64,000 nt of DNA from Rhodospirillaceae bacterium (GTDB lineage Bacteria > Pseudomonadota > Alphaproteobacteria > Rhodospirillales > Rhodospirillaceae), in contig CAXXRP010000008.1 of assembly GCA_963662375.2 (NCBI GenBank), positions 7,738 through 71,737 of the forward strand, written 5' to 3'. A program made the position numbers and the translations under genes. This document shows positions 7,922 through 41,675 of the stretch, one piece after another (positions within the stretch are counted from its first letter, which is position 1; every line of letters begins with the position of its first letter). The notes beneath the pieces are model-generated. The model saw only the letters and a program-made list of their open reading frames with translations, was not told the origin of the DNA and made no database searches.

Positions 7922-8680
7922 GTGAGCAAGAAACTAACGATCGAAGCACTTCCAGGCATTTCCAGGGTCAACAAAGGGGCCGATCTTGTAGCCCTGATCG
8001 GGGACGCGATGGACCGATGTGATCGCCGCGCTGCGGACGGAGACGTTTTTGTCATTGCCCAGAAAATCGTCTCGAAGGCCGAAGGCCGAGTAGTCAAACT
8101 TGCCGATGTCAATCCATCGGAAGAGGCGAAGACGCTGGCCCGAAAGACTGATAAGGACCCGCGCTTAGTGGAGCTTATTCTTGGCGAAGCCGACGAAGTT
8201 GTTCGCTACCGCAAGGACGTTCTGGTTGTTGCCCACCGCCTCGGTATTGTACATGCTAACGCTGGCATCGATCGGTCCAATGTTGACAGCGAGGATGTTG
8301 TTCTTTTATTGCCAGAAGCCCCCGATGCCTCGGCAAGGGAGATTCGAAAGGGCCTGGAAGCGCGTTATGGTGTGCGCCTCGGTGTTGTGATTAGCGATAG
8401 CACGGGGCGGGCCTGGCGCATCGGCACCGTTGGCCTCGCCATTGGCGCATCTGGCGTAGAAACCGTACAGGATCTTTTGGGACGGCCGGATCTCTTTGGT
8501 CGACCGCTTGAAGCCACTGTCATTGGGCACGGCGATGAGCTTGCCGCTGCCGCGTCGATCATCATGGGCCAAGCTGATGAAGGGACACCAGTGGTCCTAA
8601 TCAGCGGCTTGCGGGCATCGACGACCAATCAAACTGCGGCTGATCTTTTGCGATCAAAGACTGAGGACTTGTTCCGATGA
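7922..8680 (+). CDS. cofE: Coenzyme F420-0:L-glutamate ligase, stand-alone CofE (no FbiB-type C-terminal domain)
   Basis: GDVFVIAQKIVSKAEGR...VAHRLGIVHANAGIDRSN...VVISDSTGRAWRIGTVGLAIG...DELAAAASIIMGQADEGTPVVLI is CofE-family. It is 252 aa with a GTG start. The stop overlaps the cofD ATG (ATGA). Confidence 0.9.
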   Translation: MSKKLTIEALPGISRVNKGADLVALIGDAMDRCDRRAADGDVFVIAQKIVSKAEGRVVKLADVNPSEEAKTLARKTDKDPRLVELILGEADEVVRYRKDVLVVAHRLGIVHANAGIDRSNVDSEDVVLLLPEAPDASAREIRKGLEARYGVRLGVVISDSTGRAWRIGTVGLAIGASGVETVQDLLGRPDLFGRPLEATVIGHGDELAAAASIIMGQADEGTPVVLISGLRASTTNQTAADLLRSKTEDLFR

Positions 8681-9636
8681 GCGAGCATTTCGTCGCTTTG
8701 TCCGGTGGCATTGGAGGAGGCAAGCTGGCGCTTGGTCTGTCCAGGATTCTTGCGGCGGAAGAACTGACCATTGTAGCCAATACCGGCGATGATTTTGTCC
8801 ATTTGGGGCTACATATAGCGCCAGACCTCGACACCATCATGTATACGCTCGCAGGTGTTTCGAACGCCGAGACCGGGTGGGGTCGTGGCGGTGAAACCTG
8901 GAACTTTATGGCCGCGCTCAAGGGTCTTGGCGGTGAAACCTGGTTCAATCTGGGCGACAAGGATTTGGCCACTCATGTCGAACGCGCTGAACGTTTCCGG
9001 CGGGGCGAGTCTTTGAGCCAGGTCACATCTGCCCTGTCAAGAGCTTTGGGTATCGAACACGCCATCGTGCCAATGAGCGACGATCCGGTTCGTACCATCA
9101 TCAGCACGTCGGATGGCGATCTCGCGTTTCAGCATTATTTTGTGCGTGAGAGATGCGAGCCCCGGATCACTGCTGTTCGCTTCGACGGCGCGGAAGCGGC
9201 CCGGCCCGCTCCTGCTTTTCTTCAGGCATTGGAAGAAGCGGATCTCACAGGTGTAATTATCTGTCCGTCGAATCCCTATGTCAGCATTGATCCCATTCTC
9301 GCATTACCGGGCATCCAGGAGTCGCTGGGCAGTATTGCAGTCCCGGTTGTGGCCGTATCACCGATCATCAAGGGGATGGCCATAAAGGGCCCTACCGCAA
9401 AGATGATGGCCGAATTAGGTATGGAGGCCAATGTCGAAACGGTAGCCCGGCATTACCGTGGCCTTGTCGATGGTATGGTCATTGATGATCAGGACGTTTC
9501 GTCCCGGGCTTCTGTCGAGGCAGAGGGCGCGGTGGTCGGGATCACTAACACGATCATGAATACGCTCACCGATCGAGAAAATCTGGCGCAGTACGTAATC
9601 GATTTCACAAGACAATTGAAACGGTCCGGGCAGTGA
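8677..9636 (+). CDS. cofD: 2-phospho-L-lactate (LPPG:FO) transferase
   Basis: ALSGGIGGGKLALGL...IVANTGDDFVHLGLHIAPDLDTIMYTLAG...GETWNFM...ICPSNPYVSIDPIL are CofD/FbiA hallmarks. Confidence 0.9.
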   Translation: MSEHFVALSGGIGGGKLALGLSRILAAEELTIVANTGDDFVHLGLHIAPDLDTIMYTLAGVSNAETGWGRGGETWNFMAALKGLGGETWFNLGDKDLATHVERAERFRRGESLSQVTSALSRALGIEHAIVPMSDDPVRTIISTSDGDLAFQHYFVRERCEPRITAVRFDGAEAARPAPAFLQALEEADLTGVIICPSNPYVSIDPILALPGIQESLGSIAVPVVAVSPIIKGMAIKGPTAKMMAELGMEANVETVARHYRGLVDGMVIDDQDVSSRASVEAEGAVVGITNTIMNTLTDRENLAQYVIDFTRQLKRSGQ

Positions 9637-10316
9637 GCAAGAAGGTGGAAGAGAAGGCGGTCTGGGCGGTTCTTCCGATAAAGGCCCTGCGCGGGGCCAA
9701 GGAAAGACTAGCTGACGTTCTTGGAGCGGAAGAACGGGCCGGCTTGGCAACCGCCATGGCGCAGGACATGCTTGCCAGCCTGACTGCAACAGCGGGCGTA
9801 GAGGGCGTCCTTGTCGTCTCGAACGCCGAGGAGGTAAGGGTGCTTGCCGGACAGTACGGCGTTAAAGTTCTACCAGAGAGTGATGGCCAAGGGCTTTCCG
9901 CGGCAGTGACCATCGCGGCTCAAGTCCTTACAAGAGAGCAGGTCCAGGCAATGATGGTTGTTCACGGGGATATTCCGCTGGCCACGCCGGCCGATTTCGA
10001 ACTGGTGCTGGACAGCGCCGCTCCATCGCCATCTATCACCGTTGTTCCATGCAGAAATGAAGACGGATCCAATGTGATGATTTGCACACCTCCCGATGCT
10101 ATCCCATTTCGTTATGGGCCGGGAAGCTACAACGCCCACCAACGGGCCGCCCGAGACGCAGGCATTGACGCCAAAATCTTGCGGGTGCCGGGCCTCGCCC
10201 TCGATATCGATATACCGGAAGACTTGGCGGCGCTTCTTCAGCACCTTAATAGTGGAAAAATAGGTCCCAACACCGAGCGGTTTCTCTCTGAAAGACGCCT
10301 TGGGGAACAGCTGTAG
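9633..10316 (+). CDS. cofC: Phospho-acid guanylyltransferase of F420 biosynthesis (CofC/FbiD family)
   Basis: WAVLPIKALRGAKERL...MAQDMLASL...VVHGDIPLATPADF...GSYNAHQRAA match CofC/FbiD. GTG start in a 4-nt GTGA overlap with the cofD stop. Confidence 0.85.
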   Translation: MSKKVEEKAVWAVLPIKALRGAKERLADVLGAEERAGLATAMAQDMLASLTATAGVEGVLVVSNAEEVRVLAGQYGVKVLPESDGQGLSAAVTIAAQVLTREQVQAMMVVHGDIPLATPADFELVLDSAAPSPSITVVPCRNEDGSNVMICTPPDAIPFRYGPGSYNAHQRAARDAGIDAKILRVPGLALDIDIPEDLAALLQHLNSGKIGPNTERFLSERRLGEQL

Positions 10317-12334: not shown

Positions 12335-12339
12335 AGCCG

Positions 12340-13343: not shown

Positions 13344-13406
13344 GATTTTTGTTTCCCAATTTTGGAGTTCTAAACATGTCGAGTGAACCTGCCCAAGCTA
13401 ACGTTT

Positions 13407-15941: not shown

Positions 15942-15991
15942 TTCGGACGATCTTCCCTCGTTCTAATTCCCTGGCGCAGGAAGCGAGGAAA

Positions 15992-19279: not shown

Positions 19280-19834
19280 GTGAAACTTGAGCAAGTCGAT
19301 GTCAACAAAGACTATCCGATGGAGCCGGATGAATTCGATATACTGTACAAGCACAACTGTTATTGCTTCATGGCCCACATTTCCAAGTATGGCTACCCCA
19401 TCGTGACGCCGATGTTCTATGTCGTGCTGGAAGACGGGTATGTTTACATCAGCAGCGTGCAGAAATACCGTCATAAGATCGATCAGCTGATCGCCAATCC
19501 AAAAATTTCCGTCAGCATCTGTAATGACGGTTCAAACGCCAAGTGCCAAAAGTCCATCCAGATCATCGGCAATGCAGAAATATCTTTTGATCAAGAGCTG
19601 CTGACCAAAGTGCACTGGGCCATCATCGACAAATACTGGTGGGATCTGAAAAGCGAAGAAATACGTCAAGCTGCCTTTAAAGGGGTGCATACGCCGAACA
19701 GGGCTATCATCAAGGTGATCCCCAACAAGAATTCACCAACGTCATGGGATTTTGGCAAAATGGTAAACATGTATGAACGTGGTATCTGGTTCAACGAGGC
19801 GTACCAAATGTGCAGCCCACACGACGTTCGGTAA
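19280..19834 (+). CDS. Pyridoxamine-5'-phosphate-oxidase-like split beta-barrel protein (FDOR/PPOX class, possibly F420-dependent)
   Basis: CFMAHISKYGYPIVTPMFYVVLEDGYVYISSVQKYRHKIDQLIANPKISVSI...IQIIGNAEI follows the PPOX/FDOR pattern. The cofactor (FMN, F420 or haem) cannot be assigned from sequence alone. The start is GTG at 19280 or ATG at 19319. GC content is visibly lower than in the neighbouring genes. Confidence 0.55.
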   Translation: MKLEQVDVNKDYPMEPDEFDILYKHNCYCFMAHISKYGYPIVTPMFYVVLEDGYVYISSVQKYRHKIDQLIANPKISVSICNDGSNAKCQKSIQIIGNAEISFDQELLTKVHWAIIDKYWWDLKSEEIRQAAFKGVHTPNRAIIKVIPNKNSPTSWDFGKMVNMYERGIWFNEAYQMCSPHDVR

Positions 19835-23376: not shown

Positions 23377-23420
23377 AATGGGCGGGCCTAGCGAGGTCTA
23401 TTGGAAAAAGGCACGGCCTC

Positions 23421-23921
23421 GTGACTGCTAACGATAACTGGCAAGCCCAAATCGAGGCTTTGTTGCGCCGTGTGGACGAACTGGAAAGCCGTGCCGCGCT
23501 GCGCGACTTGGTCACCGACTATTGCCTTGGATTTGATAACCACAATTGGGATCAGTTCATTGCGATCTGGCACAAAGATGCCGTTTGGGAAATTGGCGCT
23601 CCGTTCGGCACCTTTACCGGCCACACTGGCATCCGGAAAGCGGTCTTTGACGTTCTTTATCCTGTCTGGCGCGAAACCCATCACTTGACATCCAATCTCC
23701 GCCTGGAGTTTAACGATGCCGACCATGCCCGGGGCGTCTGCAATGTCGACTGCATGGGCGCAACCAAGGACGACATTGTGCAGATGATCAGCGCCACCTA
23801 CGCTGATGATTTTGAGCGCCGCGACGGGGTCTGGAAAATCGCTAATCGCGCCGTCACCATCCACTATTTCAATCCCATTCCGGGCGCTGAGATGGGTGCT
23901 CCGGAAGTGGCGGAGGACTGA
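23421..23921 (+). CDS. SnoaL-like/NTF2-fold protein
   Basis: 166 aa. LRDLVTDYCLGFDNHNWDQFIAIWHKDAVW...HHLTSNLRLEF follows the NTF2-like pattern. GTG start. Confidence 0.65.
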   Translation: MTANDNWQAQIEALLRRVDELESRAALRDLVTDYCLGFDNHNWDQFIAIWHKDAVWEIGAPFGTFTGHTGIRKAVFDVLYPVWRETHHLTSNLRLEFNDADHARGVCNVDCMGATKDDIVQMISATYADDFERRDGVWKIANRAVTIHYFNPIPGAEMGAPEVAED

Positions 23922-23950
23922 ACTTTACGCGATCTGCCGCGAAAGTCAGG

Positions 23951-24958
23951 ATGGCGCGCATGAATGATCGAAGCGAATGGCTGTCGACGACCGTCGAGGA
24001 GCCGCTGGACCCGGACCTGGAAATTTGCGACGCCCACCATCATCTCTGGGATCGTGGAGGCCACTACTATCTTGCCAATGAATTCATCGAAGACACCAAG
24101 GGCCACTGCGTTACCAAATCTGTCTACGTCGAGTGTCTATCAATGTATTGCGAGGATGGTCCCGAGGCACTCTATCCCGTCGGTGAAACCGAATTTGTCG
24201 AGCGCATCACTTCCACCGCACAATCACACGTGAGCGGTCTGCAAGTGGCGGCGGGCATCATTGGATTCGCCGAATTGACTCTGGGCGCTACGGTTCTCCC
24301 CGTGCTGGAGGCTCATATTGAAGCCAGCCCGCGGTTTCGGGGTATCCGGTACGCGACCGCATGGGATGCCAGCGACAAAATCCACAACGCCCATACAACG
24401 CCCAGCCAATATTTGTTTGGTGAGGCTGATTTTCGCGAGGGATTTTCTTGCCTGGGTGAGCTTGATTTGACCTTTGACGCCTCGCTCTATTTCCACCAGA
24501 TTCCCGAACTCGTCGATCTGGCCAGAACCTTCCCCACTACAACTATCATCCTCAACCATGTCGGTGCGCCCATCGGCATCGGTCCGTACGCCGGCAGGCG
24601 GGATGAAGTTTTTGCCACTTGGAAAGCGCACATTTCTGAGCTTGCCAAGTGCGACAATGTTTTAGTTAAGTTGGGTGGTTTGACCATGGCCATGGCCGGG
24701 TTCGGTTGGCATAGGCGAGACAAACCTGCCAGTTCCATGGATTTGGCCGAAGCGATGTCCCCCTACTACCGGGTTTGCATTGAACGTTTCGGCCCGGATC
24801 GCTGTATGTTCGAAAGCAATTTCCCGGTCGATGGCACCGGCGCGTCCTACACGATTCTGTGGAATGCTTTCAAGCGGGTCGCTAAAGAATATACGGAGGA
24901 TGAGCAACGCGCGCTCTTTTATGCCACCGCTGTCCACGCATACAGATTGGGGCGCTAG
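23951..24958 (+). CDS. Amidohydrolase-2 family metal-dependent hydrolase (lactonase/decarboxylase-type TIM barrel)
   Basis: ICDAHHHLWD metal-binding start, then ILNHVGAP, and FESNFPVD near the C-terminus. Confidence 0.8.
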   Translation: MARMNDRSEWLSTTVEEPLDPDLEICDAHHHLWDRGGHYYLANEFIEDTKGHCVTKSVYVECLSMYCEDGPEALYPVGETEFVERITSTAQSHVSGLQVAAGIIGFAELTLGATVLPVLEAHIEASPRFRGIRYATAWDASDKIHNAHTTPSQYLFGEADFREGFSCLGELDLTFDASLYFHQIPELVDLARTFPTTTIILNHVGAPIGIGPYAGRRDEVFATWKAHISELAKCDNVLVKLGGLTMAMAGFGWHRRDKPASSMDLAEAMSPYYRVCIERFGPDRCMFESNFPVDGTGASYTILWNAFKRVAKEYTEDEQRALFYATAVHAYRLGR

Positions 24959-25722
24959 TATTTCATACGCAAACCAGCATCAAGCCGGATCGTTTCCCCA
25001 TTGATGTACGGATTGAACACAATATGCTCGGCAAGCCAGGCGAACTCTTTGGGCTTGGCGAGGCGGCTAGGAAAGGGAATATCCTTGGCCAGATCTTCCT
25101 TGATTTCTGGCGCCAGCCCTTTGAGGATCGGTGTCTCGCATAAACCTGGCGCGATTGTCACGACGCGCACACCGTAAGACGCCAGGTCGCGCGCGATCGG
25201 CAAGGTAATGCCAACAAGTCCGCCCTTGCTGGCGGCGTATGCGACCTGCCCCTTCTGTCCCTCAAAGGCAGCGATTGACGCGGTGTTGATTACAACGCCG
25301 CGCTCACCGTTTTCATTTGGCTCATTCTCGCTCATCTTTTCGACAGCTTGCGTGAGTACATTAAATGTACCGATCAGGTTGATGTTTATAACGTGCCTGA
25401 ACAGCTCCATCGGGAAGCGCCCTTTCCTTCCGTAGGTCTTGGTGGCGCCGCCACCGCGGCCAGCGCAATTGACGCAGACATGGATGGCGCTGAGGGTCTT
25501 CATAACCCGATCAATTCCGGCGCTGACAGATGCATCGTCGGCCACATTGACCTGGCAAAAGATTACGTCCTCACCCAGTTCCTCCGCTAACGCATTGCCC
25601 CGCTCCTCGTTCAGGTCGAAGATTGCGACTTTTGCTTCCTGTTCGGCAAACTGCCGTACCGTTGCTTCGCCGAGCCCCGATGCGCCGCCGGTTACAATCG
25701 CCACATTATTCTGCAAATTCAT
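24955..25722 (-). CDS. SDR, type-2 3-hydroxyacyl-CoA dehydrogenase (HSD10-like)
   Basis: [47 protein letters not shown] and [14 protein letters not shown]. Start trimmed to the ATG at 25722, which is preceded by GGAGAA. Confidence 0.85.
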
Positions 25723-25945
25723 CACTTTCTCCGCTTGCTCGAACACGCCGGTATCCATGACTTAAAGAAGAGCTATTGCTCTCTGGATTCCGGTTATTTT
25801 TGAATATATTTCAAAAAAATACTACCGTCCCTTTTCATTTTGGCAGACCCTTGGGATCGGATCAGGCACGGCATAATTTTGGATGGCTCAATGTAATGGT
25901 ATTGGCTGATCGTCGACAGAAATTTGAGTATTTGTGAGAGTAGGA

Positions 25946-27151
25946 ATGGCCATAGCATATGTATTTGATCACGTTCGGACACCTCGGGGAAAAGGACGCC
26001 CCAACGGCGCCCTGCACAGCGTTTCGCCGGTAAACTTGCTGGCGCAGGTGTTGATAAACCTGCGAGAGCGGAACGAACTTGACACATCTCTGGTCGAGGA
26101 CGTCATCGCTGGTTGCGGATCGCCCATTGGCGAACAGGGTAGTGCTATCGGGCGCAGCGCGTGTCTGGCAGCCAATTATGCCGTGACCACGCCTGGCCAG
26201 CAAATCCACCGCTTTTGCTCGTCGGGCCTTGAGGCGGTCAACATGGCGGCGGCCAAAATTGTTTCCGGGCAATGCGATCTGGTCATAGCCTGCGGCGTAG
26301 AGAGTATGTCGCGGATTCCCATTGGTTCGTCGGGAGGTGCCTGGTCATCCGACCCGTCGCTGGCTCACGAAATCTATTTTATTCCGCAAGGCATTTCCGC
26401 AGATCTAATCGCCACGATCCACGGATTTTCCCGTGCCGATGCAGATGCCTATGCAGTGGAAAGCCAGCGTCGCACTGGTTCGGCTTGGGACAAAGGGTAC
26501 TTTGACCACTCGGTCATTAGAGTAGTGGACGAGATTGGGATGACTCTACTGGAGCGCGACGAAGCCATGCGACCGGCGACGACCGTTGATGATCTGGATA
26601 GGTTGCCGCCAGCTTTTACCGGCCTCGGGGCAATGGGGTTCGACCAGCTGGCCGTCTTGAAATTCCCAGATGTAGAGAAGATTAACCACATTCATACTGC
26701 GGGCAATTCCAGTGCCATCGTCGATGGTGCAGGTTGCGCACTGATTGGCTCTGCCGAGATGGGTAAAAAACTTGGCCTGACACCGCGCGCTCGAATCCGC
26801 TCATGCGCTTCAGTGGGTACTGACCCGACACTCATGCTGACAGGCCCCACGCCGTCGGCCCAGAAGGCGCTGGAAAAGGCGGGCATGGAGAAATCTGATA
26901 TCGATCTGTTCGAACTCAATGAAGCCTTCGCCTCGGTCGTTTTGTTGTACATGGACGAGATGAACATTCCGCACGAGCAGATCAACGTTAATGGCGGCGC
27001 CATCGCCATGGGCCATCCGATTGGCGCAACTGGTCTCATGATCATGGGGACGGCCCTTGATGAGATGGAGCGGCGCGGCATCGGGACCGCGCTGGTTAAT
27101 CTGTGTGTAGGCGCCGGTATGGGCACTGCTACTATCATCGAACGCGCGTAA
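25946..27151 (+). CDS. Acetyl-CoA C-acyltransferase (true thiolase, FadA-like)
   Basis: The nucleophile motif RFCSSGLEAV is present, as are NVNGGAIAMGHPIGATG and the C-terminal LCVGAGMG. Confidence 0.9.
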   Translation: MAIAYVFDHVRTPRGKGRPNGALHSVSPVNLLAQVLINLRERNELDTSLVEDVIAGCGSPIGEQGSAIGRSACLAANYAVTTPGQQIHRFCSSGLEAVNMAAAKIVSGQCDLVIACGVESMSRIPIGSSGGAWSSDPSLAHEIYFIPQGISADLIATIHGFSRADADAYAVESQRRTGSAWDKGYFDHSVIRVVDEIGMTLLERDEAMRPATTVDDLDRLPPAFTGLGAMGFDQLAVLKFPDVEKINHIHTAGNSSAIVDGAGCALIGSAEMGKKLGLTPRARIRSCASVGTDPTLMLTGPTPSAQKALEKAGMEKSDIDLFELNEAFASVVLLYMDEMNIPHEQINVNGGAIAMGHPIGATGLMIMGTALDEMERRGIGTALVNLCVGAGMGTATIIERA

Positions 27152-27171
27152 GCGTCGGCGAGGACTTATTC

Positions 27172-28617
27172 ATGCCTGATCCCACCCAATTCGACACCAT
27201 GAGCTATAAAGTCGCGGAAAATGGCGTCGCCTTCATCGCTATTGATTTGAAGGACCGGTCTGTGAACGTGCTGACGCCTGAGATGCATCAGGACGTTGGC
27301 AAGGTGGCCGAGAAACTGGCGACCGACGAAACCGCCATTGGTGCTGTTGTGCACTCAGGCAAGTCGTCGTTCATGGCTGGCGGCGATCTCAATCGAATTG
27401 TGCTGTATTATGACATGAACCGGTCGCCTGAAGAGGCCTATACGCAGTCGCGCACCTACACCGAATCTTTGAGAAAGCTTGAGACCTGCGGCAAGCCGGT
27501 CGCGGTCGCAATAAACGGCACGGCTCTAGGCGGTGGCTTGGAACTAGCTCTGGCCTGTCATTATCGGGTCGTGACAGACGACCCCGGATTGTTGTTGGGC
27601 TTGCCGGAAGTCACGCTCGGCCTGTTGCCGGGTGGTGGTGGTACTCAGCGTTTGCCACGTCTGATAGGCCTCAAACAGGCGGCGAATCTTATTTTATCGG
27701 GCAAACGCGTCAACCCGGCAGAGGCGGTGGAACTAGGCATAATCGACGAAGTGGTGCCCGCTGATGATCTGGTGGCTGCGGCGGAGAAATGGGTACTTGA
27801 GAAGGGCAATCCACAACAGCCTTGGGACGAGCGAGGTTTTAAGGTGCCCGGCGGTTCTGGGCTCAACGACATCAATGTTGGCAGGTTATTTCAGAAGCTG
27901 ACCGCTCAGGTGGGCGCTGATTACAGGCACAATTATCCGGCGCCAATCGCTATATTGAGGTGTCTTTTTAACGGCACGACGGTTTCTTCAATTGATGCCG
28001 CACTCAAGATAGAGACCAGGGAGTTTTCGGCGCTGACCCGCGATCCGGTGGCGCGGAACATGATCCGCACAATATTTATAAACAAAGGCAAGGCCGGACG
28101 CCCGGATGAGGAACAGCAGGAGCGCAATGAGAAGCTCAAACAAAGTTGTCAGGGAGCCTATATCCGCGAAGGACTGAGTATGGTTCGTGAGGGTGTAAAA
28201 CCGGTTCTGATTGAGAATGCCGCTTTTGCAGCTGGTCTGATGCCCGGCCCTTTGGCGCTGGCGGAGGAGCAGGCGCTTGTCGATGCGCACGCGGCGCTGC
28301 CTGAGGATGGCCCGGTCATTACGCCCGATGCCGAAGACGTGAAGCAACGCCTGCTGGGTGCCCAGGCGTTGGCGGCCGCTGAATGCTGGGAAAAAGGATT
28401 AATTGAGCCGGTTGATGCCGATCTCGCTTCCGTGTTGGGCTGGAGGTTTCCCACATATACTGGCGGCGTGATATCATACATCGACACTATGGGCTTGAGC
28501 ACATTTATAGCCCGGTGCGATCGGTTTGTCGGACAGGATGGTGTATCAGGCAGGCCATCTGACTGGTTGCGCAGAAAGGCGAAAGATCATGAGCGCATTT
28601 ATCCTTTGATGGCTTGA
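27172..28617 (+). CDS. FadB/FadJ-like enoyl-CoA hydratase with 3HCDH C-terminal domains but no NAD-binding Rossmann domain
   Basis: Crotonase core AINGTALGGGLELALACHYRV...LGLPEVTLGLLPGGGGTQRL. C-terminal 3-hydroxyacyl-CoA-dehydrogenase-C-like segments (IREGLSMVREGV...; LGWRFPTYTGGVISYID). It is only about 481 aa, and no GxGxxG dehydrogenase domain lies between the two parts. Confidence 0.75.
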   Translation: MPDPTQFDTMSYKVAENGVAFIAIDLKDRSVNVLTPEMHQDVGKVAEKLATDETAIGAVVHSGKSSFMAGGDLNRIVLYYDMNRSPEEAYTQSRTYTESLRKLETCGKPVAVAINGTALGGGLELALACHYRVVTDDPGLLLGLPEVTLGLLPGGGGTQRLPRLIGLKQAANLILSGKRVNPAEAVELGIIDEVVPADDLVAAAEKWVLEKGNPQQPWDERGFKVPGGSGLNDINVGRLFQKLTAQVGADYRHNYPAPIAILRCLFNGTTVSSIDAALKIETREFSALTRDPVARNMIRTIFINKGKAGRPDEEQQERNEKLKQSCQGAYIREGLSMVREGVKPVLIENAAFAAGLMPGPLALAEEQALVDAHAALPEDGPVITPDAEDVKQRLLGAQALAAAECWEKGLIEPVDADLASVLGWRFPTYTGGVISYIDTMGLSTFIARCDRFVGQDGVSGRPSDWLRRKAKDHERIYPLMA

Positions 28618-28889
28618 TCAACGTGCCTTAAACCATCAAATCGCCGGTAACCTGAGGGCTTGCAGAGTTTGGACTAAGCGGAGGTGTTTGTTTTTTTTAG
28701 GAGGTGATAGAATCGACAGCACTCAGGGAAAGGAGTCTCTTGAATAGCTATATTTGTAGGCGCAAAGTTGCAATAATCTTCAGCGAGTATTGGTGTAGGC
28801 GTTACAGTAACGTCAGACTGAACTGAAGAGTTAGAAAAGTTAAGCGGGGTAAGTCATCGGTAACTTATCATACGTAGGAGGACCGCCAA

Positions 28890-30170
28890 TTGGCAGCAGA
28901 GAATTTAGACGAAAGATCGGTACAAGTCATCGCCAGATTTCGCGGGTTGCTCGAGGAAGGCGCCGACCCACATGAGTGGGCCTTTTCCTGGCGCACCGAG
29001 CTTAACCGCGGCGGCTTCCCGGCGGTCGATCTCCTCATGGAGGAAGTCGTCAAGCCAGGAAAATGTGTCGGCTGCGCGGCCTGTGTCGCCATTTGCCCCG
29101 TCGATGTATTCGACTATGTGGATGAAAATCCAGTCAACGCGCGCCCTGAGGCCTGCGTCAATTGTGTCCTGTGCGCTGATGTATGCCCGGTATTGAGGCC
29201 GCCCGACAATGATCTCCCTGATTTTCTGGGGCTGCAGGAACCGGCTAAGGATGAGGGCTACGGCCCTTACGCCTATGGATTTTATGTTCGTGCCACGGAC
29301 CCCGAAATTCTGGCCAAAGGCCAGGACGGCGGCATGGTCTCTGCGCTGATCCTGCACGGGTTTGAAAAGGGCACACTGGGCGGTGCCATTCTCGGCGATG
29401 TATTGCCTGACAACAGGCAAATCGGCTACCAAAAATTGGCGCGAAACAGGAAGGACGTGCTGAGCTGCGCGGCGTCCCGATACACATACTCACCCAATAC
29501 ACTCGCGCTTCAGAAGGCAATGCGCGAGAACGTCAGCCCGCTTGCGGTTGTTGGTGTGCCCTGCCAAGTCGACGGCGTTCGATTGCAGCAAAATTCGAGC
29601 ATTCGTCTCGAAATAGCCAGATGGTACCGGGAGAATATCAGCCTGGTTTTCGGGTTGTTCTGTTCGGAAGCCTTCACCCACGAGAGCATCGAAAAACTTG
29701 GTGAAATGATCGACGTCGATCCAAAAAGCATCGAAAACATAAATATCAAGGGCAAGGTTATCGCCCGTCTTGATAGCGGAGAAACCAAAACTGTATCGCT
29801 GAAGAAGTATCGCGATTTTGCCCGACCCGCCTGTCTCTACTGTCTCGATTACGGCGGTGAAAATGCGGATATCGGAGCGGGCGGGATTGGCCTGGATGGG
29901 TGGACCTATACCTTGATTCGCACCAGGCGAGGTCACGAGGCCTTTCAAGCCGCTCTGAAAGATGGGTGGATTGAAACGCGGCCCCTCTCTGATGAGCCGC
30001 GGGGTGAGTTCCTGATGAATAAGCTTTCTGCGAATAAGAAGAAGAATCGCCCGCTGCCGGCGCAGATGCCAACCCACGCTGAACGCGAGGCAATGGGAAG
30101 CCTATGCCCAAAAACATTTTACACGACCGGTCCAGGGGCGCCGCCCCCGGATGAAGAGTCTAGGCAGTGA
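28890..30170 (+). CDS. FrhB/FdhB/FpoF-family (coenzyme F420 hydrogenase/dehydrogenase beta-like) protein with N-terminal 2x[4Fe-4S] ferredoxin domain
   Basis: Two CxxCxxCxxxCP motifs (CVGCAACVAICP, CVNCVLCADVCP). FrhB-like N- and C-domains follow: GQDGGMVSALIL, AVVGVPCQVDGVR, VFGLFCSEAF and ACLYCLDYGGENADIGAGGIG. TTG start preceded by AGGAGG. Confidence 0.85.
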   Translation: MAAENLDERSVQVIARFRGLLEEGADPHEWAFSWRTELNRGGFPAVDLLMEEVVKPGKCVGCAACVAICPVDVFDYVDENPVNARPEACVNCVLCADVCPVLRPPDNDLPDFLGLQEPAKDEGYGPYAYGFYVRATDPEILAKGQDGGMVSALILHGFEKGTLGGAILGDVLPDNRQIGYQKLARNRKDVLSCAASRYTYSPNTLALQKAMRENVSPLAVVGVPCQVDGVRLQQNSSIRLEIARWYRENISLVFGLFCSEAFTHESIEKLGEMIDVDPKSIENINIKGKVIARLDSGETKTVSLKKYRDFARPACLYCLDYGGENADIGAGGIGLDGWTYTLIRTRRGHEAFQAALKDGWIETRPLSDEPRGEFLMNKLSANKKKNRPLPAQMPTHAEREAMGSLCPKTFYTTGPGAPPPDEESRQ

Positions 30171-31969
30171 ACGCTCGCACCCAAAACCGGGAAGCCGAAT
30201 CCGGCAGAAGTCTAACAACTCGAGCCCGCGAAGACGTGACTGTGATGGTTGCCGGTCAGGGCGGAGATGGCTCACTCACGGTCATCGCTTTTCTGGCCCG
30301 GGCTCTTTCACAGCGCGGCTTATATCTTTTTCGCACCAGCAATATAGCCTCGCGCATCAAGGGCGGGCACGCCGCCGCTGTACTTCGCGGGTCTGCCCTG
30401 CGCCGTGGCTGCCTTGGAGACAAGCTCGATATCCTGGTTGCCTTTGACGATGAAGCCATTGAGAAGGCGGGGCCGTCAGTCGCCGACGATGGCATCGTTA
30501 TTTACGATGTTTCAAGAGGGCCGCTGCCGGGGGGGATTCTCCCGTCAACTGCGCAGGTGATCGAAGTGCCCTTTGGCCGGCTTGCCGTTCGTGATCTGCG
30601 GCGCGACCTATTTAAAAATTGCTTTGGCTTCGGTGTGTTGTCGCGCGTTATGGGTTTGTCGGACGATGAGGCACTCGACTGTCTCAAACACCGCTTTCGG
30701 AGACTGTCGGAAGAGGATTTGAGGCCAAACATCGGCGCCCTTGAGAATGGCCTTTCGTTCGCCGACGACCTCGGCATGACGGTCGATCATGGTTTGTTCA
30801 GACTGCCCCGTCTAGAAAAGGAAGACCGGATCGTGATTACCGGTAACGAAGCGACCGCCTTTGGATTTCTTGCCGCGGGCGGGCGATTTTTTGCTGGTTA
30901 CCCCATTACACCGGCCACGGATATCATGGACTGGTTGGGAAAGAGATTTCCACAATTTGGTGGCGTGGCGATGCAGGCCGAAGATGAACTGTCAGCGATC
31001 AATCTGGCCATTGGGGCTTCGTTTGCGGGCGCAAAAGCCATGACTGCGTCTTCAGGGCCGGGCATTGCGCTTATGCAGGAGGGTATCGGGCATTGCGGTT
31101 CGGCAGAGATCCCGCTTGTGATCGTCGATTGCCAACGCGCGGGGCCATCGACCGGTATGCCGACAAAGCCGGAGCAGAGCGATATTGGCCTAATGACCCA
31201 GGGCGCTCCGGGTGACATTCCACGCGTTGTTTTGTGTCCGGGCACTCCCGAGGAATGTTTCGAATATGGGGTCTTGGCCACGAATCTGGCGCAGGTTGCT
31301 CAATGCCCGATTTACATCGCTCTGGATGGCCTGTGCCAGTCCGCCCACATGGTGCCGGCGTTTGATCTAGATTCGATAGAAATCGACAACGGCAAAAGAT
31401 TGGACGATGCCGAGATATCGAAGCTGGATGAGTACCGCCGTTATGCGATAACCGAAGATGGCATTTCGCCCTGGGCGATCCCTGGCCAGCGCCAAGGCAT
31501 GAACCTGGTAACCGGCAACGAGCGCAATGAATGGGGGCAGGTTTCAACCGATCCGGTAAATCGCGCAGCGATGGTAGACAAGCGTGCCCGCAAGATTGAT
31601 AGCGTCCGGCATCAACTGCCACGCGCATACGAGTGGGGTGACGAGCAGGCGAACGTTGGTGTGATCTGTGTTGGCATGGTGGGAGATGTTCTTATTGAGG
31701 CCCGCGAGCGGCTGACTGGGCACGGCATAGGCCTGCGTTGCCACCGGCCGCGTACGCTGTGGCCACTTCCTGACGATACGGTGGATTTCGTCAAAAGCTG
31801 CGAGAGAGTTTATGTCGTTGAATACAACAAGGGCGGCCAATTAGCGGATCTAATCCGATCCGTCGGCGCGCCCGCAGAAGGCATGCATAGCATTCTAAAA
31901 TATGATGGTGTGCCAATGAGTGTGGCACAACTGGTCGAGGCAATCCTGGAAAAGGAGAAAGCCCGATGA
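30167..31969 (+). CDS. korA: 2-oxoacid:acceptor oxidoreductase alpha subunit (fused gamma-alpha, KorA-type)
   Basis: Gamma-like domain VAGQGGDGSL...SRIKGGH. Alpha domain ITGNEATAFGFLAAGGRFFAGYPITPATDI...AEDELSAINLAIGASFAGAKAMTASSGPG. A GTG start at 30167 overlaps the upstream stop (GTGA); ATG at 30245 is the alternative. Confidence 0.9.
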   Translation: MNARTQNREAESGRSLTTRAREDVTVMVAGQGGDGSLTVIAFLARALSQRGLYLFRTSNIASRIKGGHAAAVLRGSALRRGCLGDKLDILVAFDDEAIEKAGPSVADDGIVIYDVSRGPLPGGILPSTAQVIEVPFGRLAVRDLRRDLFKNCFGFGVLSRVMGLSDDEALDCLKHRFRRLSEEDLRPNIGALENGLSFADDLGMTVDHGLFRLPRLEKEDRIVITGNEATAFGFLAAGGRFFAGYPITPATDIMDWLGKRFPQFGGVAMQAEDELSAINLAIGASFAGAKAMTASSGPGIALMQEGIGHCGSAEIPLVIVDCQRAGPSTGMPTKPEQSDIGLMTQGAPGDIPRVVLCPGTPEECFEYGVLATNLAQVAQCPIYIALDGLCQSAHMVPAFDLDSIEIDNGKRLDDAEISKLDEYRRYAITEDGISPWAIPGQRQGMNLVTGNERNEWGQVSTDPVNRAAMVDKRARKIDSVRHQLPRAYEWGDEQANVGVICVGMVGDVLIEARERLTGHGIGLRCHRPRTLWPLPDDTVDFVKSCERVYVVEYNKGGQLADLIRSVGAPAEGMHSILKYDGVPMSVAQLVEAILEKEKAR

Positions 31970-32829
31970 CAACAAATTACAAGCCGAACCAACCGATATG
32001 GTGTGCCGGCTGTGGACATTTCGGTGTTCAGGGCGCGCTAAACCATGCCCTGAAAGCCCTGGAAATTCCGCCGCACGAAACGGTAATCCTCGCTGGAATC
32101 GGTTGTTCGGGTTCAATTCAGAATAATTTGAGCACTTACGGTTATCACGCAATGCATGGCCGTGTTCTGCCTACAGCAATCGGCACTGCTCTTGCCAACC
32201 CCGCACTTACCGTCGTCGCTTCGGGCGGCGACGGCGACGGCTATGCGATCGGTGTCGGGCATTTTGTTCATAGCCTGAAACGGAATCCTTCGCTTGTCTA
32301 TATTGTCATGAACAATGGGACCTATGGTTTGACCAAGGGCCAGGATTCACCAACAAAGGACGCACCCGATTGGGCACCGGAGGAAGACGCCCTCGATGCA
32401 ATAATGCTGGGCCTATCTATTGGCAGCTCGACTTTTCTTGCCCGTGGCTTTGCAAGCGCGCCGGAACAGCTCAACGATTTGACGATCAAGGCACTTGAGC
32501 ATGCACAGGCGGGCAGGGGCTTCGCCTTTCTTGAAGTGCTTTCGCCATGCGTCACCTACAACGACACTTATCCCCTGTGGGAGGCCATGGTTCACGACGT
32601 TGACAAGGATGCAGATTACGATTCAGGTGATAGGTCTCTGGCTTTCACAACCTGTATGCGTCTGAAAAACGATCACCGCATTCCCACGGGCTTGATTTAC
32701 CAGGGTGACCATCCGACCCTGGAAAAGGCGCTGCTGGAAGAGGGCGCGAGACCCATCGCCCAGATCGAAAGCGATATATCGGGTTACCGTCCTAAGCTCG
32801 ATGCTATTCTGGCAAGCTATCGGGTGTGA
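31966..32829 (+). CDS. korB: 2-oxoacid:acceptor oxidoreductase beta subunit (TPP and [4Fe-4S], KorB-type)
   Basis: WCAGCGHFG and GIGCSGS cluster cysteines. TPP motif SGGDGDGYAIG...IVMNNGTYGLTKGQ. ATGA overlap with the korA stop. Confidence 0.9.
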   Translation: MTTNYKPNQPIWCAGCGHFGVQGALNHALKALEIPPHETVILAGIGCSGSIQNNLSTYGYHAMHGRVLPTAIGTALANPALTVVASGGDGDGYAIGVGHFVHSLKRNPSLVYIVMNNGTYGLTKGQDSPTKDAPDWAPEEDALDAIMLGLSIGSSTFLARGFASAPEQLNDLTIKALEHAQAGRGFAFLEVLSPCVTYNDTYPLWEAMVHDVDKDADYDSGDRSLAFTTCMRLKNDHRIPTGLIYQGDHPTLEKALLEEGARPIAQIESDISGYRPKLDAILASYRV

Positions 32830-32862: not shown

Positions 32863-35283
32863 TCAATTAACGACTATATTCGAATACTTCCTGGCGGGTA
32901 TATTGATTGATGGTTGAAGGGCCGGCATATCATGGTCACCGATACTGTCCTCTTCCGCCACTTCACCGTACAAAGTTGTGCGTTGCCGGGTGGGGCGCCC
33001 GACGCTGGCGGCAATCCGCGCCATTTCCGGTGCCGGCAGTTCCTGGCCGAATTCACTGCCCGCCGCGCGCGAGATAGATTCGTTCATCAGCGTGCCGCCA
33101 AGGTCATTCACCCCGGCGCGAAGGCTTAATGCGACCGCTTCCGGCCCCATCTTGGGCCAAGAGACCTGAATATTGGGGATCAGCGGGTGTAAAACCAGGC
33201 GCGCCACGGCATGCATAAGAAGTGCTTCCCTCAGCGTTGGTCCCCGCCGTGCCTGGCCCAGCTTAAAAAAAGGAGCCTCCCTGGCCACGAATGGTAGTGG
33301 TACGAATTCCGTGAATCCTCCAGTTTTTTCCTGAAGGGTTCGGATAATAAGCAGGTGTCGGGCCCAATCCCGGTAGTTGTCCACATGCCCAAACATGATG
33401 GTCGCTGTGGTTCTAAGGCCTACATCATGTGCCGCACCCATGACCGTTAGCCATTCGGCGCTACTCAGCTTGTCAGGGCATATTATCCGGCGAACCTCGT
33501 CCACAAGTATCTCTGCGGCGGTTCCCGGCAAAGAGCCCAACCCGGCATCACGTAGGGTCTCAAGGAACTGGCGAACCGGTACGCCAAGGGAAGCGGCGCC
33601 TGTGAAAATCTCCAATGGCGAAAAAGCGTGGACGTGAATCTCGGGCACAGCCTTCTTGATCGCCTTGAGGATTGCCAGATAGGTCTTGCCTGTATAGTCC
33701 GGGTGGATGCCGCCCTGCAGGCACACTTCGGTAGCACCGCGCTCGCGTGCCTCGATGGTCCGGCGGACGACCTCTTCAAGTGTCAGGTCATAGGGCCGGC
33801 CACGCAGGATCTCGCTTCCTCGTCCCTTCGAGAAGGCGCAGAAGCGGCAGCGATAGGTGCAGACATTGGTGTAATTGATATTGCGGTTGACGACGTGAGT
33901 CACAACTTCACCAACTGTCTCCGCCCGCAACCGGTCGGCAACCTCCAATACAGCCCCGGCTTCTCCGTCGCGCGCCCGGAACAGGCGTACGATGCTTTCT
34001 TCATTTAGGGCGTTGCCCGCCACTGACCGGTCGAGGATTTCATCGATGCCCCCGGATTTTAGTGCCGTCGGCCGCAGGACCGCCTGCTCGATTTCTCCAA
34101 CGCCGGGCTGGCCGGTTATCCAAATCCCATCGCGGGCGAGGCCACCAGCGTCTATGCGCTTTAGTACATGGGGACGCAGAATGGGATCGGTCCATTTTCC
34201 GAGATCGCTGATATATTCGGGATAAAGGGCAAGCCGCGGGCACAGAATCTTGCCTCTCGACTCAGTGCCCTTGCGCAGGCGTTCGATCTCTGGCCAGGGC
34301 GCTTCCGGATTGACGTAATCCGGAGTTACCGGCGAAACGCCGCCCCAATCATTGATCCCGGCGAAAATCAAATCAGGATAGGTCTTGGAAGACAGGTTCG
34401 GTGGCGCCTGAATATTCATATCCGGCCCGAGCAGAAGTCTGGCAACGGCGATCGTCCACATTAGGTCTTCGAAGCAGGGTTGCGCCTGATCCGCCATTTT
34501 GGTGCCTGCTTTAGGTTGGAATGCCTGGATAATGACTTCCTGAATGTGGCCGTAGCGGTCATGAATGTCGCGGATGGCCTTCAACGCCTCCAGCCGTTCT
34601 TCCCGAGTTTCGCCGATGCCAATCAGGATGCCGGTGGTGAAGGGTATGCGGCGTTCGCCGGCCAACTCGAGGACCCTAAGCCGCTCGGCAGGCCGTTTGT
34701 CAGGCGACCCGTGATGGGGCTGCCCCTTTTCACACAGACGCTCGGAGACGGATTCGAGCATCAAACCCTGTGATACTGAAACGGCCCGCAGCTGATCCAG
34801 CTGATTGCCGGTGACGATTCCGGGATTGACGTGGGGCAGGAGACCGGTTTCATCCAGGACGAGCCGGCACATGGCCTCAAGATAGTCGATCGTCGTAGCG
34901 TAGCCCAATCTGTCGAGGGCCTCACGTGCTACCGCGTAGCGCATCTCTGGCTTGTCCCCAAGAGTAAAGAGCACCTCGTGGCATCCCTTCCGGGCACCTG
35001 CCTGGGCGATCCTGAGAACCTGATCGGGCAACAAATAGGCAGCATCCAACTTACCAGGCGTCTGGGCGAAAGTGCAGTAATGGCACACATCCCTGCACAG
35101 GTGGGTCAACGGCACAAAAACCTTGGGAGAATAAGTAACAAGATGTCTGTGACCCCTGTCCCGAAGGCTGGATGCGGCGGCGAGAAGGGCGTCTGCATCT
35201 CCGATATCGGCCATCGTGATTTCCGCAAGATCGCTCGAATCCCGGTCAATCAGAATTGTGTTATTGCGTAAAAGTTTGTTCAT
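32863..35283 (-). CDS. fbiC: Bifunctional FO synthase (fused CofG-CofH radical SAM domains)
   Basis: Two radical-SAM cluster motifs, CRDVCHYCTF (CofG half) and CTYRCRFCAF (CofH half), within about 806 aa. Start trimmed to the ATG at 35283, which is preceded by AGGAGAGG. Confidence 0.9.
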   Translation of the reverse strand: MNKLLRNNTILIDRDSSDLAEITMADIGDADALLAAASSLRDRGHRHLVTYSPKVFVPLTHLCRDVCHYCTFAQTPGKLDAAYLLPDQVLRIAQAGARKGCHEVLFTLGDKPEMRYAVAREALDRLGYATTIDYLEAMCRLVLDETGLLPHVNPGIVTGNQLDQLRAVSVSQGLMLESVSERLCEKGQPHHGSPDKRPAERLRVLELAGERRIPFTTGILIGIGETREERLEALKAIRDIHDRYGHIQEVIIQAFQPKAGTKMADQAQPCFEDLMWTIAVARLLLGPDMNIQAPPNLSSKTYPDLIFAGINDWGGVSPVTPDYVNPEAPWPEIERLRKGTESRGKILCPRLALYPEYISDLGKWTDPILRPHVLKRIDAGGLARDGIWITGQPGVGEIEQAVLRPTALKSGGIDEILDRSVAGNALNEESIVRLFRARDGEAGAVLEVADRLRAETVGEVVTHVVNRNINYTNVCTYRCRFCAFSKGRGSEILRGRPYDLTLEEVVRRTIEARERGATEVCLQGGIHPDYTGKTYLAILKAIKKAVPEIHVHAFSPLEIFTGAASLGVPVRQFLETLRDAGLGSLPGTAAEILVDEVRRIICPDKLSSAEWLTVMGAAHDVGLRTTATIMFGHVDNYRDWARHLLIIRTLQEKTGGFTEFVPLPFVAREAPFFKLGQARRGPTLREALLMHAVARLVLHPLIPNIQVSWPKMGPEAVALSLRAGVNDLGGTLMNESISRAAGSEFGQELPAPEMARIAASVGRPTRQRTTLYGEVAEEDSIGDHDMPALQPSINIPARKYSNIVVN

Positions 35284-35543
35284 GACCTCTCCTGGATCGC
35301 TGCACTCATTTGGCTTAAGCATCCCATCTTGTTTACCGAGTTTCCGTTCGCGCGCTTTCCAGTCTTTTCGGGTTGTTCGGCGGAGTTGACATACGTTTCT
35401 TTCTAAGCGGCTTTGAATATTATTCAATATACTCAATGTGAATAGACGCGCAAGCTGCTAAGAAGCCAGACTCGAATCATATGTAGGCCTAGGGTCGAAC
35501 CTTTCCAGCTTTGAGTGTTGGAGGCAATATTAGAGGTAAGAAG

Positions 35544-41561: not shown

Positions 41562-41675
41562 TGAGAACGGCGGTGACAAATTAGTCCACGGAAGCGGCGG
41601 GATTTCCCAGCCGCGGGCGGAGTAAAACTCTGCCACCTGTAGCCTTCGATCTTTTTTGAGATGGAAGGCGGGAGG

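Follow-up and report, generated by a model that had tools for sequence, protein, structure and literature searches.

Three overlapping genes in a 64,000-nucleotide stretch of DNA from a Rhodospirillaceae bacterium (assembly GCA_963662375.2, contig CAXXRP010000008.1, positions 7,738 to 71,737 of the forward strand; hereafter called the window) probably represent a previously unrecognised bacterial way to charge coenzyme F420 with electrons. The first gene, here called frhB-like, codes for a protein that joins a ferredoxin-like domain to an FrhB-type core, and the two genes that follow, korA and korB, code for the subunits of a 2-oxoacid:ferredoxin oxidoreductase (OFOR). Judging from sequence comparisons, we assign a probability of roughly two in three to the hypothesis that the three products make up a single enzyme, a 2-oxoacid:coenzyme F420 oxidoreductase that would generate F420H2. 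A preliminary description of this DNA had likewise proposed that an OFOR is wired to F420 through a fused dicluster-FrhB subunit and could generate the F420H2 of the island. Four observations now support that proposal: the affinity of the frhB-like product to F420-reactive proteins, the obligate association of the three genes and their joint inheritance (r=0.85), the proximity of F420 biosynthesis genes in 18 of 41 bacterial loci, and the lack of a match to Fno or Fgd in the window.

The three genes are joined by two 4-bp overlaps of stop and start codons, caGTGAac between the frhB-like gene and korA and cgATGAca between korA and korB, which indicate translational coupling. Overlaps of 4 bp are also found at both junctions in all four related loci for which gene calls are available (L043, L045, L046 and L047). 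The TTG start of the frhB-like gene is well defined, because an in-frame TAG (28875-28877) five codons upstream rules out an earlier start and an AGGAGG Shine-Dalgarno sequence precedes the TTG at a distance of 8 nt. There is no further Fer4-containing open reading frame (ORF) in the operon, and no delta or ferredoxin subunit is encoded beside KorAB. Terminator and promoter predictions around the operon gave only background-level signals. Profile hidden Markov model searches with the three proteins matched the FrhB_FdhB N- and C-terminal, Fer4, POR, POR_N and TPP_enzyme_C families. Because the E-values range from 1e-14 to 1e-163 and the triad is conserved in 41 other genomes, the arrangement lies far beyond chance.

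On these points the preliminary description was accurate. It had read three co-directional genes with overlapping stop and start codons, as the ORFs and both junctions confirm, and it had placed the first gene in the FrhB family behind two CxxCxxCxxxCP motifs, in agreement with the translation and the Pfam matches. Its account of a two-subunit OFOR with a thiamine pyrophosphate (TPP) motif, beta-subunit cysteines and no ferredoxin subunit of its own is matched by the Pfam and NCBIfam results and by the motifs, and the ORFs and NCBIfam matches also place korB 33 bp from the 3' end of fbiC, with cofE, cofD and cofC in the same island, as it had stated.

KorA matches the Pfam families POR (gamma), POR_N and PFOR_II, and it scores 543.7 bits on TIGR03710, the model for 2-oxoacid:acceptor oxidoreductase alpha subunits (cutoff 482.75). 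A YPITP motif at residues 245-249 is invariant across triads, and the closest structure is the 2-oxoglutarate:ferredoxin oxidoreductase (OGOR) of Magnetococcus (6N2N_A, E=2.6e-97). KorB matches TPP_enzyme_C and PFO_beta_C above cutoff, and alignment to 6N2N_B and 5B46_B identifies cluster cysteines C13, C16, C47 and C196 together with a GDG...NN TPP motif, all of which are invariant. On TIGR02177 this protein reaches 218.6 bits against a cutoff of 261.9, and no beta-subunit equivalog cutoff is reached; by these scores KorB is a divergent beta subunit. No equivalog model that would name a substrate is reached by KorAB, whose closest structure is that of a 2-oxoglutarate enzyme. Judged by its domains, KorAB is of the two-subunit OFOR type (OAFO_sf alpha with PorB_KorB beta), which has no internal ferredoxin domain and needs an external acceptor.

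The protein encoded directly upstream of korA is, by both of its Pfam domains, a member of the FrhB/FdhB/FpoF family (termed 'FDRC' in the F420 literature). FrhB_FdhB_N (PF04422, residues 131-207) scores 54.2 bits against a gathering cutoff of 22, and FrhB_FdhB_C (PF04432, residues 218-368) scores 117.4 bits against 23.3. Ahead of these domains lies a Fer4 dicluster at residues 53-101 (Pfam; Fer4_7, Fer4_9 and Fer4_10). The translation contains CVGCAACVAICP, CVNCVLCADVCP, GQDGGMVSA, GVPCQVDG, GLFCSEAF and CLYCLDYGGENADIGAGGIG. Three FAD motifs in the core (Q145-D-G-G148; R197-Y-T199 within an S196-T199 loop; C258-S-E-x-F262) align with residues 24-27 (QDGG), 73-77 and 132-138 of Methanothermobacter FrhB. 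The FAD loops of that protein are 24-QDGG, G73-T77 and I132-F138, the last of which holds the cluster ligand Cys134 (PMC3930138). Alignment to FrhB gives C225, C258, C315 and C318 as the ligands of the core [4Fe-4S] cluster; the Cys134 equivalent is the only one of the four described in that paper, and the other three are assigned from alignment and invariance.

All 12 iron-sulfur cysteines (8 in the ferredoxin-like domain and 4 in the core) are invariant across 31 complete triads from at least 8 phyla, as are the FAD motifs QDGG, RYT and CSE.F. The protein also carries N- and C-terminal extensions that are specific to its clade, the former with invariant residues W30, W34, R35, E37, N39 and G41-G42-F43. 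Both extensions are possible docking elements for KorAB.

Within its family, the FrhB-like protein is closest to members that react with F420. In a sequence search of the PDB, the best matches were FrhB of three methanogens (1e-37 to 4e-36), 8RJA_E (2.5e-36) and 8RIU_B (2.5e-33), the last two with an alignment that spans residues 46-387. Fsr followed at 1e-28, the beta subunit of F420-dependent formate dehydrogenase at 2e-14 and weaker, and HCAR (5DQR) at 6.7e-6. A Foldseek search with an AlphaFold2 monomer model (pLDDT 65.6, pTM 0.68; good in the core, poor in the cofactor-free ferredoxin-like domain) ranked the relatives in the same order, with a probability of 1.0 for the 8RJA and 8RIU subunits, target-normalised TM-scores of 0.75-0.79 for FrhB, and HCAR in 13th place or lower (E about 1e-12). 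All of the closest characterised proteins are F420-reactive. The preliminary description had held that a grouping with HCAR and BciB would speak against its proposal; no such grouping is seen, given an E-value of 6.7e-6 for HCAR against 1e-37 for FrhB.

Assignment to HCAR or BciB was rejected, since the similarity to them is far weaker than to the F420-reactive FrhB members. Two narrower assignments were rejected as well. On the models for FrhB proper, the protein scores 165.9 bits (TIGR03289, cutoff 331.5) and 189.3 bits (NF006807, cutoff 269), and no hydrogenase genes are present in the window. On those for FpoF/FqoF (NF006808 and NF040616), it reaches about 109-110 bits where 444 and 475 are required, and no genes resembling those of complex I lie nearby. 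Because these NCBIfam scores fall well below the cutoffs, we conclude that the protein is neither a hydrogenase subunit nor an Fpo subunit.

Rather, its architecture is that of an add-on F420 reductase: a ferredoxin-like domain, a reductase domain and a C-terminal extension, encoded together with a ferredoxin-type oxidoreductase (KorAB). Chain 8RIU_B is the ACDS zeta subunit of an F420-reducing carbon monoxide dehydrogenase (CODH), and 8RJA_E is the FwdI subunit of an F420-reducing formylmethanofuran dehydrogenase (Fwd), both from Ca. Ethanoperedens thermophilum (Lemaire et al., 2024; PMC11493965). A 906-residue relative (P0267) has the ferredoxin-FrhB module fused to GltD-like Fer4_20 and Pyr_redox_2 domains. 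By its domain content, this fusion is another sign that the module combines freely with a variety of redox partners.

A pattern-based scan of one genome per GTDB species yielded 41 bacterial loci and one distant archaeal locus. The bacterial carriers belong to at least eight phyla, including Proteobacteria (Alpha- and Gammaproteobacteria, among them Rhodobacteraceae, Thalassospiraceae, Lysobacterales and Spongiibacteraceae), Actinomycetota (Acidimicrobiia, Thermoleophilia and Gaiellales), Chloroflexi, Armatimonadetes, Myxococcota, Dadabacteria and Spirochaetales. Wherever the contig continues and the locus is intact, korA lies directly 3' of the frhB-like gene on the same strand (39 of 39 informative loci), and korB comes next whenever the contig extends far enough. 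Pairwise distances of the FrhB-like and KorA proteins in the 31 complete triads are correlated at r=0.85, and the FrhB-like protein evolves most slowly (mean pairwise distance 0.35, compared to 0.41 for KorB and 0.45 for KorA). The triad is therefore an obligate gene unit in every bacterial locus found, and its subunits are inherited together.

The archaeal locus (L042 10001-12512) comes from a Bathyarchaeota metagenome-assembled genome (MAG) and holds an FrhB-like gene of 27% identity about 1.2 kb from a cofE homologue, without korAB. Some bacterial loci look degraded or wrongly assembled. L040 (3021-4534) has no korA, its frhB-like match ends at residue 236 and its ORFs are broken up, and in L037, L038 and L041 two separate high-scoring segment pairs make up the frhB-like match. 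These loci may be pseudogenes or may reflect frameshift errors in MAGs.

Similarity searches set the clade of triad-linked proteins apart. A protein search returned 1173 relatives at E<=1e-10, and identity is 71% or higher throughout the 120 best clusters, whose names, if any, are no more than generic ones such as 'coenzyme F420 hydrogenase subunit beta' and '4Fe-4S binding protein'. When 1.84 billion representatives clustered at 50% identity were searched exhaustively with HMMER, the clade appeared as one full-length representative (68% identity, 658 bits), and the next relatives were at most 44% identical. None of the five next relatives inspected (34-44% identity) stands beside korAB; they are stand-alone archaeal genes or have unrelated partners. 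Because these relatives do not adjoin korAB, linkage to KorAB defines the clade. No match turned up when 72,556 plasmids were searched with tblastn.

The genomic surroundings point to F420 as well. In the window, fbiC converges on korB, and fbiC and cofEDC together cover FO synthesis, tail attachment and glutamylation. Across the bacterial loci, cofC, cofD, cofE or fbiC lies within 10 kb of the triad, in the flank that was fetched, in 18 of 41 cases, and in 8 of the 15 loci whose flanks span the full 10 kb. By our estimate, for a 4-5 Mb genome that holds four of these genes, roughly 2% is expected by chance at each locus. Several arrangements are intimate: cofD-cofE, the triad and cofC-fbiC follow one another in L004 and L005, the order is triad-cofD-cofE-cofC-fbiC in L012 and L014, and cofE lies directly upstream of the triad in the actinobacterial loci L025-L027. 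In a Rhodobacteraceae MAG (L047), a TetR gene is followed by the seven-gene co-directional array frhBL-korA-korB-cofD-cofE-cofC-fbiC, and a luciferase-like gene is present in the divergent neighbouring operon. Separately, a single 1039-residue product in L043 (17818-20937) combines CofC, radical SAM and CofH_C domains, an apparently unusual CofC-FbiC fusion.

Among about 54 ORFs of the window (all those of about 130 residues or more and a few shorter ones), Pfam and NCBIfam searches found no match to Fno (F420_oxidored), Fgd or luciferase-like proteins, which bears out the statement in the preliminary description that no Fno or Fgd homologue is visible there. The CofE of the window is the 252-residue, ligase-only form, which matches only the F420 ligase model and has no FbiB-type nitroreductase domain, and Pfam scans of the window revealed no protein of the PF00881 nitroreductase family; a dehydro-F420-0 reductase is absent. 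If CofC uses phosphoenolpyruvate, this reductase is missing; otherwise, F420 would be made from 2-phospholactate or 3-phosphoglycerate.

From these components we propose the following reaction. KorAB, with TPP, coenzyme A (CoA) and the single [4Fe-4S] cluster of its beta subunit, would convert pyruvate, 2-oxoglutarate or another 2-oxoacid to the acyl-CoA and CO2. No free ferredoxin would collect the electrons. The two electrons would instead leave the KorB cluster singly for the pair of [4Fe-4S] clusters in the ferredoxin-like domain of the FrhB-like subunit and from there through the [4Fe-4S] cluster of the FrhB core to FAD, and a hydride transfer from FAD to F420 would complete the reaction. 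The couple of a 2-oxoacid with acyl-CoA and CO2 has a potential of about -500 mV. That of F420 is about -340 to -350 mV (-350 mV in PMC10229431), and because of this difference the transfer from 2-oxoacid to F420 would be exergonic, by approximately -30 kJ/mol, and effectively one way toward F420 reduction. These values agree with the preliminary description, which had called this direction thermodynamically reasonable. An adaptor subunit would be needed for such a reaction, since the purified pyruvate oxidoreductase of methanogens does not by itself use F420 in either direction (PMC9012536). Physiologically, the enzyme encoded alongside the F420 biosynthesis genes would supply F420H2, a part that Fno or Fgd plays in other bacteria.

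Several points weigh against this assignment. All carriers found are uncultured MAGs. The AlphaFold2 monomer model of the FrhB-like protein is only moderate (pLDDT 65.6), and its ferredoxin-like domain receives generic Fer4 scores, with no specific affinity to OFOR delta subunits in NCBIfam. No fusion of FrhB and POR domains was seen in the ten of the 150 best representatives that were scanned, mostly the longest, and these carry extra Fer4, helix-turn-helix or GltD-like domains instead. Neither the cryo-EM structure of Frh (PMC3930138) nor the structure of Fsr (PMC10229431) shows density for F420, and because FrhB-type structures are without bound F420, the residues that give the family its F420 specificity are undefined. 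In seven of the loci with complete 10-kb flanks, the triad has no gene for F420 biosynthesis in its vicinity (L020 and L021 from Chloroflexi, L030, L032 and L039 from Proteobacteria, L033 from Myxococcota and L041 from Actinomycetes), and a divergent subclade (56-61% identity) is never found with a cof gene nearby. A Pfam survey of 100 neighbouring ORFs of these seven loci revealed no enrichment of F420-dependent families, a result that is uninformative either way.

The lack of FrhB-POR fusions among the ten representatives scanned and the lack of a delta-subunit signature in the ferredoxin-like domain would both suit an arrangement without a complex, in which KorAB is an ordinary ferredoxin-dependent OFOR and the FrhB-like protein is a soluble, co-expressed ferredoxin:F420 oxidoreductase. 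The net chemistry would be unchanged. The soluble FpoF of Methanosarcina, which acts as a ferredoxin:F420 oxidoreductase, provides a precedent, and the nearest outgroup (42-44% identity) consists of stand-alone ferredoxin-FrhB proteins that have no OFOR neighbours. Among the references given for the FDRC family in a 2021 review of F420 is Welte and Deppenmeier (2011) (PMC8498797). However, a ferredoxin gene is not part of the unit in any locus, the gene order is strict, with 4-bp overlaps at both junctions, and the co-inheritance of the unit is accompanied by the strongest constraint on precisely the FrhB-like subunit. The conserved extensions of that subunit resemble docking elements, ACDS zeta of like architecture anchors to its partner through its ferredoxin domain, and the 8RJA and 8RIU entries both hold such a subunit within a complex with the partner enzyme. 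We consider it unlikely, on balance, that the three proteins work apart, and favor their assembly into one 2-oxoacid:F420 oxidoreductase.

A second alternative keeps the complex and changes the acceptor, which would be another compound, for example NAD(P)+, a quinone, a free flavin or oxygen, reached through an FAD and iron-sulfur exit module like that of HCAR or BciB. The family does include F420-independent members, as the recovery of HCAR 5DQR by both sequence and fold searches illustrates, and the seven loci and the subclade that are devoid of nearby F420 biosynthesis genes, as well as the experimentally undefined F420-binding residues, could be read in its favor. Yet F420-reactive modules match more than 30 orders of magnitude better than HCAR, and the NCBIfam FrhB models still give 166-189 bits. 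It would also be hard to explain why an F420-independent enzyme has cof genes within 10 kb in 18 of 41 loci, in some of them interleaved or co-directional with the triad. An acceptor other than F420 thus seems improbable to us.

F420 might be involved in yet another manner if the triad were an accessory of its biosynthesis, for example as the electron source for reduction of dehydro-F420-0. The position of the triad between cofE/cofD and cofC/fbiC in several loci (L003-L006 and L011), the CofE that matches only the ligase model and the absence of a PF00881-type protein from the Pfam scans of the window would all fit. FrhB modules, however, move a hydride at C5 of the deazaflavin rather than at the enolpyruvyl tail, an OFOR with TPP and iron-sulfur clusters would be an extravagant source of electrons for a biosynthetic step, and some triads are far removed from any cof gene. 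Moreover, proteobacterial CofC can use 3-phosphoglycerate or 2-phospholactate, for which no reduction is required (PMC8498797), and we regard a biosynthetic role as very improbable. Least credible of all is the reverse reaction, an F420H2-dependent 2-oxoacid synthase that carboxylates acyl-CoA reductively: although OFORs are reversible in principle and the closest solved KorAB homologue, Magnetococcus OGOR, acts in the reverse tricarboxylic acid cycle, F420H2 at -340 to -350 mV is about 150 mV too positive for a carboxylation at about -500 mV, the methanogen pyruvate oxidoreductase uses F420 in neither direction (PMC9012536), and the hosts look like aerobic heterotrophs, with a pyrroloquinoline quinone dehydrogenase that has a cytochrome c domain and beta-oxidation genes encoded in the window.

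Table 1. Features of the window discussed in the text (numbered from the first nucleotide of the window).
Feature	Position	Strand	Description and basis
Shine-Dalgarno AGGAGG	28876..28881	+	8 nt 5' of the frhB-like TTG; direct sequence reading
frhB-like gene (ferredoxin-FrhB subunit, proposed F420-reductase subunit)	28890..30170	+	426 aa, TTG start; ORF, Pfam and structural relatives
Clade-specific N-terminal extension, residues 1-50	28890..29039	+	Conservation in 39 close homologues and 31 triads; FrhB is without it
Ferredoxin-like domain, residues 51-105, predicted 2x[4Fe-4S]	29040..29204	+	Pfam Fer4; CxxCxxCxxxCP twice: C59/62/65/69 and C89/92/95/99
FrhB-type core, residues 124-387	29259..30050	+	Alignment to FrhB 3ZFS_C/4OMF
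Clade-specific C-terminal extension, residues 388-426, P-rich, partly conserved	30051..30167	+	Conservation in homologues and triads; FrhB is without it
korA, fused gamma-alpha subunit, domains III-I-II	30167..31969	+	600 aa, GTG start
korB, TPP-binding beta subunit, one predicted [4Fe-4S] site	31966..32829	+	287 aa, ATG start
fbiC (bifunctional CofG/CofH FO synthase)	32863..35436	-	NF006687 1096 bits, cutoff 1018; convergent, 33 bp from korB stop
cofE (F420-0:glutamate ligase)	7922..8680	+	NCBIfam (cofE-D-C set TIGR01916, TIGR01819, TIGR03552), above equivalog cutoff
cofD (2-phospho-L-lactate transferase)	8677..9636	+	NCBIfam, above equivalog cutoff
cofC (guanylyltransferase)	9633..10316	+	NCBIfam, above equivalog cutoff
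PNPOx_N (FDOR-like) protein	19280..19834	+	Pfam PF01243 E=1.6e-9; no NCBIfam match
rve-type insertion sequence (IS) transposase	6158-7138		
IS6 fragments	41062-41550 and 45212-45808		
IS21-like istA/istB pair	41661-43942		

The triad lies within a region of about 34 kb (approximately 7.1-41 kb) that is bracketed by transposase genes (at 6158-7464, 41062-41550, 41661-43942 and 45212-45808) and that holds cofEDC, fbiC, many catabolic genes resembling those for acyl-CoA and steroid side chains, and an FDOR-like gene, which suggests a mobile or recently acquired island of F420 and catabolism genes. In a gammaproteobacterial MAG and in an Emcibacter MAG, closely related gene sets are found around the triad, which fits a module of F420 and catabolic genes that has spread horizontally. 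In the Emcibacter MAG (L045), an IS6/IS240 fragment lies beside fbiC.

The catabolic genes, a conserved set of lipid or steroid-side-chain type, occupy positions 10324-16000 and 21622-28617 of the window, and much of the set is present again in L043 (2295-9765). They code for a DUF35/ChsH2-OB protein, an Ltp-type thiolase, MaoC/FAS1-type hydratases, SnoaL-like proteins, a TetR regulator, SDRs, acyl-CoA dehydrogenases, a KstD-like flavoprotein, an Amidohydro_2 protein, a further thiolase and an enoyl-CoA hydratase/3-hydroxyacyl-CoA dehydrogenase. In L045, the part of this set that stands beside the triad is limited to the SDR, thiolase and hydratase genes. The triad is directly preceded by an Amidohydro_2 gene in L002 and L043, and in L004 such a gene is found about 2 kb upstream, beyond cofD-cofE. 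Small PNPOx_N genes recur near the triad (L043 1337-1912 and L046 7384-8225), and in both the window and L043 such a gene adjoins an acyl-CoA ligase gene. The PNPOx_N proteins are possible, weakly supported candidates for the F420H2-consuming reductases of the island.

In the many bacteria outside the actinobacteria with a known or predicted capacity for F420 synthesis, F420 reduction is poorly understood. If the proposed activity is real, the triad would add a third and mechanistically different bacterial route to F420H2, and it would extend to bacteria and to OFORs the archaeal principle of rewiring a ferredoxin enzyme to F420. It would also explain the fate of low-potential OFOR electrons in aerobes that have no obvious ferredoxin sink, offer a strongly exergonic, NADPH-independent means of regenerating F420H2 for F420-dependent biocatalysis, and make the triad a practical genomic marker of F420 use in metagenomes. 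A bolder version of the hypothesis, to which we give even odds, is that this is both the first bacterial FrhB ('FDRC')-type enzyme and the first 2-oxoacid:F420 oxidoreductase. In that version, many uncultured bacterial lineages (Alpha- and Gammaproteobacteria, Acidimicrobiia, Chloroflexi, Myxococcota, Dadabacteria and others) would generate F420H2 mainly by means of the trimer, which would tie F420 reduction directly to central carbon metabolism and would have spread horizontally with fbiC and cofCDE as a 'make-and-charge' cassette, carried here in a transposase-bracketed catabolic island.

A full-text literature search, which did not extend to the gene-context figures of Ney et al. (2017, ISME J), brought up archaeal precedents only and no account of the bacterial triad. 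The 2021 review places FrhB-type ('FDRC') enzymes in Euryarchaeota only, names no bacterial reducers of F420 other than Fno and Fgd, and includes both among the genes that it depicts around those for F420 biosynthesis in other bacteria (PMC8498797). Fno and Fgd share with the triad the proposed role of F420H2 supply; their Rossmann and TIM-barrel folds are unrelated, and they take a hydride directly from NADPH or glucose-6-phosphate with no iron-sulfur or flavin relay. HCAR and BciB, the ferredoxin-dependent chlorophyll reductases, have the superfamily fold in common with the FrhB-like protein, but they act on another substrate, without F420 and without an OFOR partner.

FrhB itself (3ZFS/4OMF, 6QGR and 9R51) is the best match to the core; conserved between them are the four cysteines of the cluster and, as FAD loops, QDGG, G(T/S)(K/R)YT and a YCMENF-like sequence. 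It differs in having no fused ferredoxin domain, a role that FrhG fills, and the triad has no hydrogenase genes nearby. The OGOR of Magnetococcus marinus (6N2N/6N2O) and the OFOR of Sulfurisphaera tokodaii (5B46-5B48) correspond to KorAB in the III-I-II arrangement of KorA, in domain VI and the single [4Fe-4S] cluster of KorB, in the YPITP and TPP motifs and in the lack of an internal ferredoxin domain. Those enzymes use free ferredoxin as acceptor, whereas a dedicated ferredoxin-FrhB subunit is encoded directly upstream here, with translational coupling, throughout the triad clade.

The preliminary description had also stated that no such enzyme had been characterised. This holds for OFOR-linked enzymes, but the idea has precedents in the pyruvate:ferredoxin oxidoreductase (PFOR) clusters of ANME-1 and in CODH and Fwd. 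ANME-1 FrhB6 paralogs are encoded beside PFOR genes and were proposed to reduce F420 (Chadwick et al., 2022; PMC9012536). They are comparable in that gene clustering points to oxidative decarboxylation coupled to F420 reduction, and they are likewise uncharacterised. The likeness is one of gene clustering, and the ANME-1 systems are archaeal, have an annotated PFOR as partner and show no linkage to F420 biosynthesis.

The closest parallel in design is provided by ACDS zeta and FwdI. ACDS zeta consists of an N-terminal ferredoxin domain with two clusters, an F420-reductase domain with FAD and a [4Fe-4S] cluster, and a C-terminal extension used for dimerisation, and its ferredoxin domain anchors to an enzyme that elsewhere uses ferredoxin; the purified CODH and Fwd complexes carry out coupled F420 reduction, and the diversion of electrons to F420 is documented by structure and assay (PMC11493965). 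Like the FrhB-like protein, these subunits combine ferredoxin, FrhB-type and C-terminal parts, and as add-on subunits they redirect a CO2-releasing, ferredoxin-type enzyme to F420. There are also clear differences: their partners are CODH and Fwd instead of a TPP-dependent two-subunit OFOR, their hosts are anaerobic archaea and not aerobic-looking bacteria, the identity is only about 27%, the 50-residue N-terminal extension is confined to the triad clade, and F420 reduction has been demonstrated for them and is predicted here. Rewiring of ferredoxin enzymes to F420 by an added FrhB-type subunit is thus established for archaeal CODH and Fwd. The module and the logic of the triad are known, and what is new here is the partner enzyme, the domain of life and the association with an F420 biosynthesis operon.

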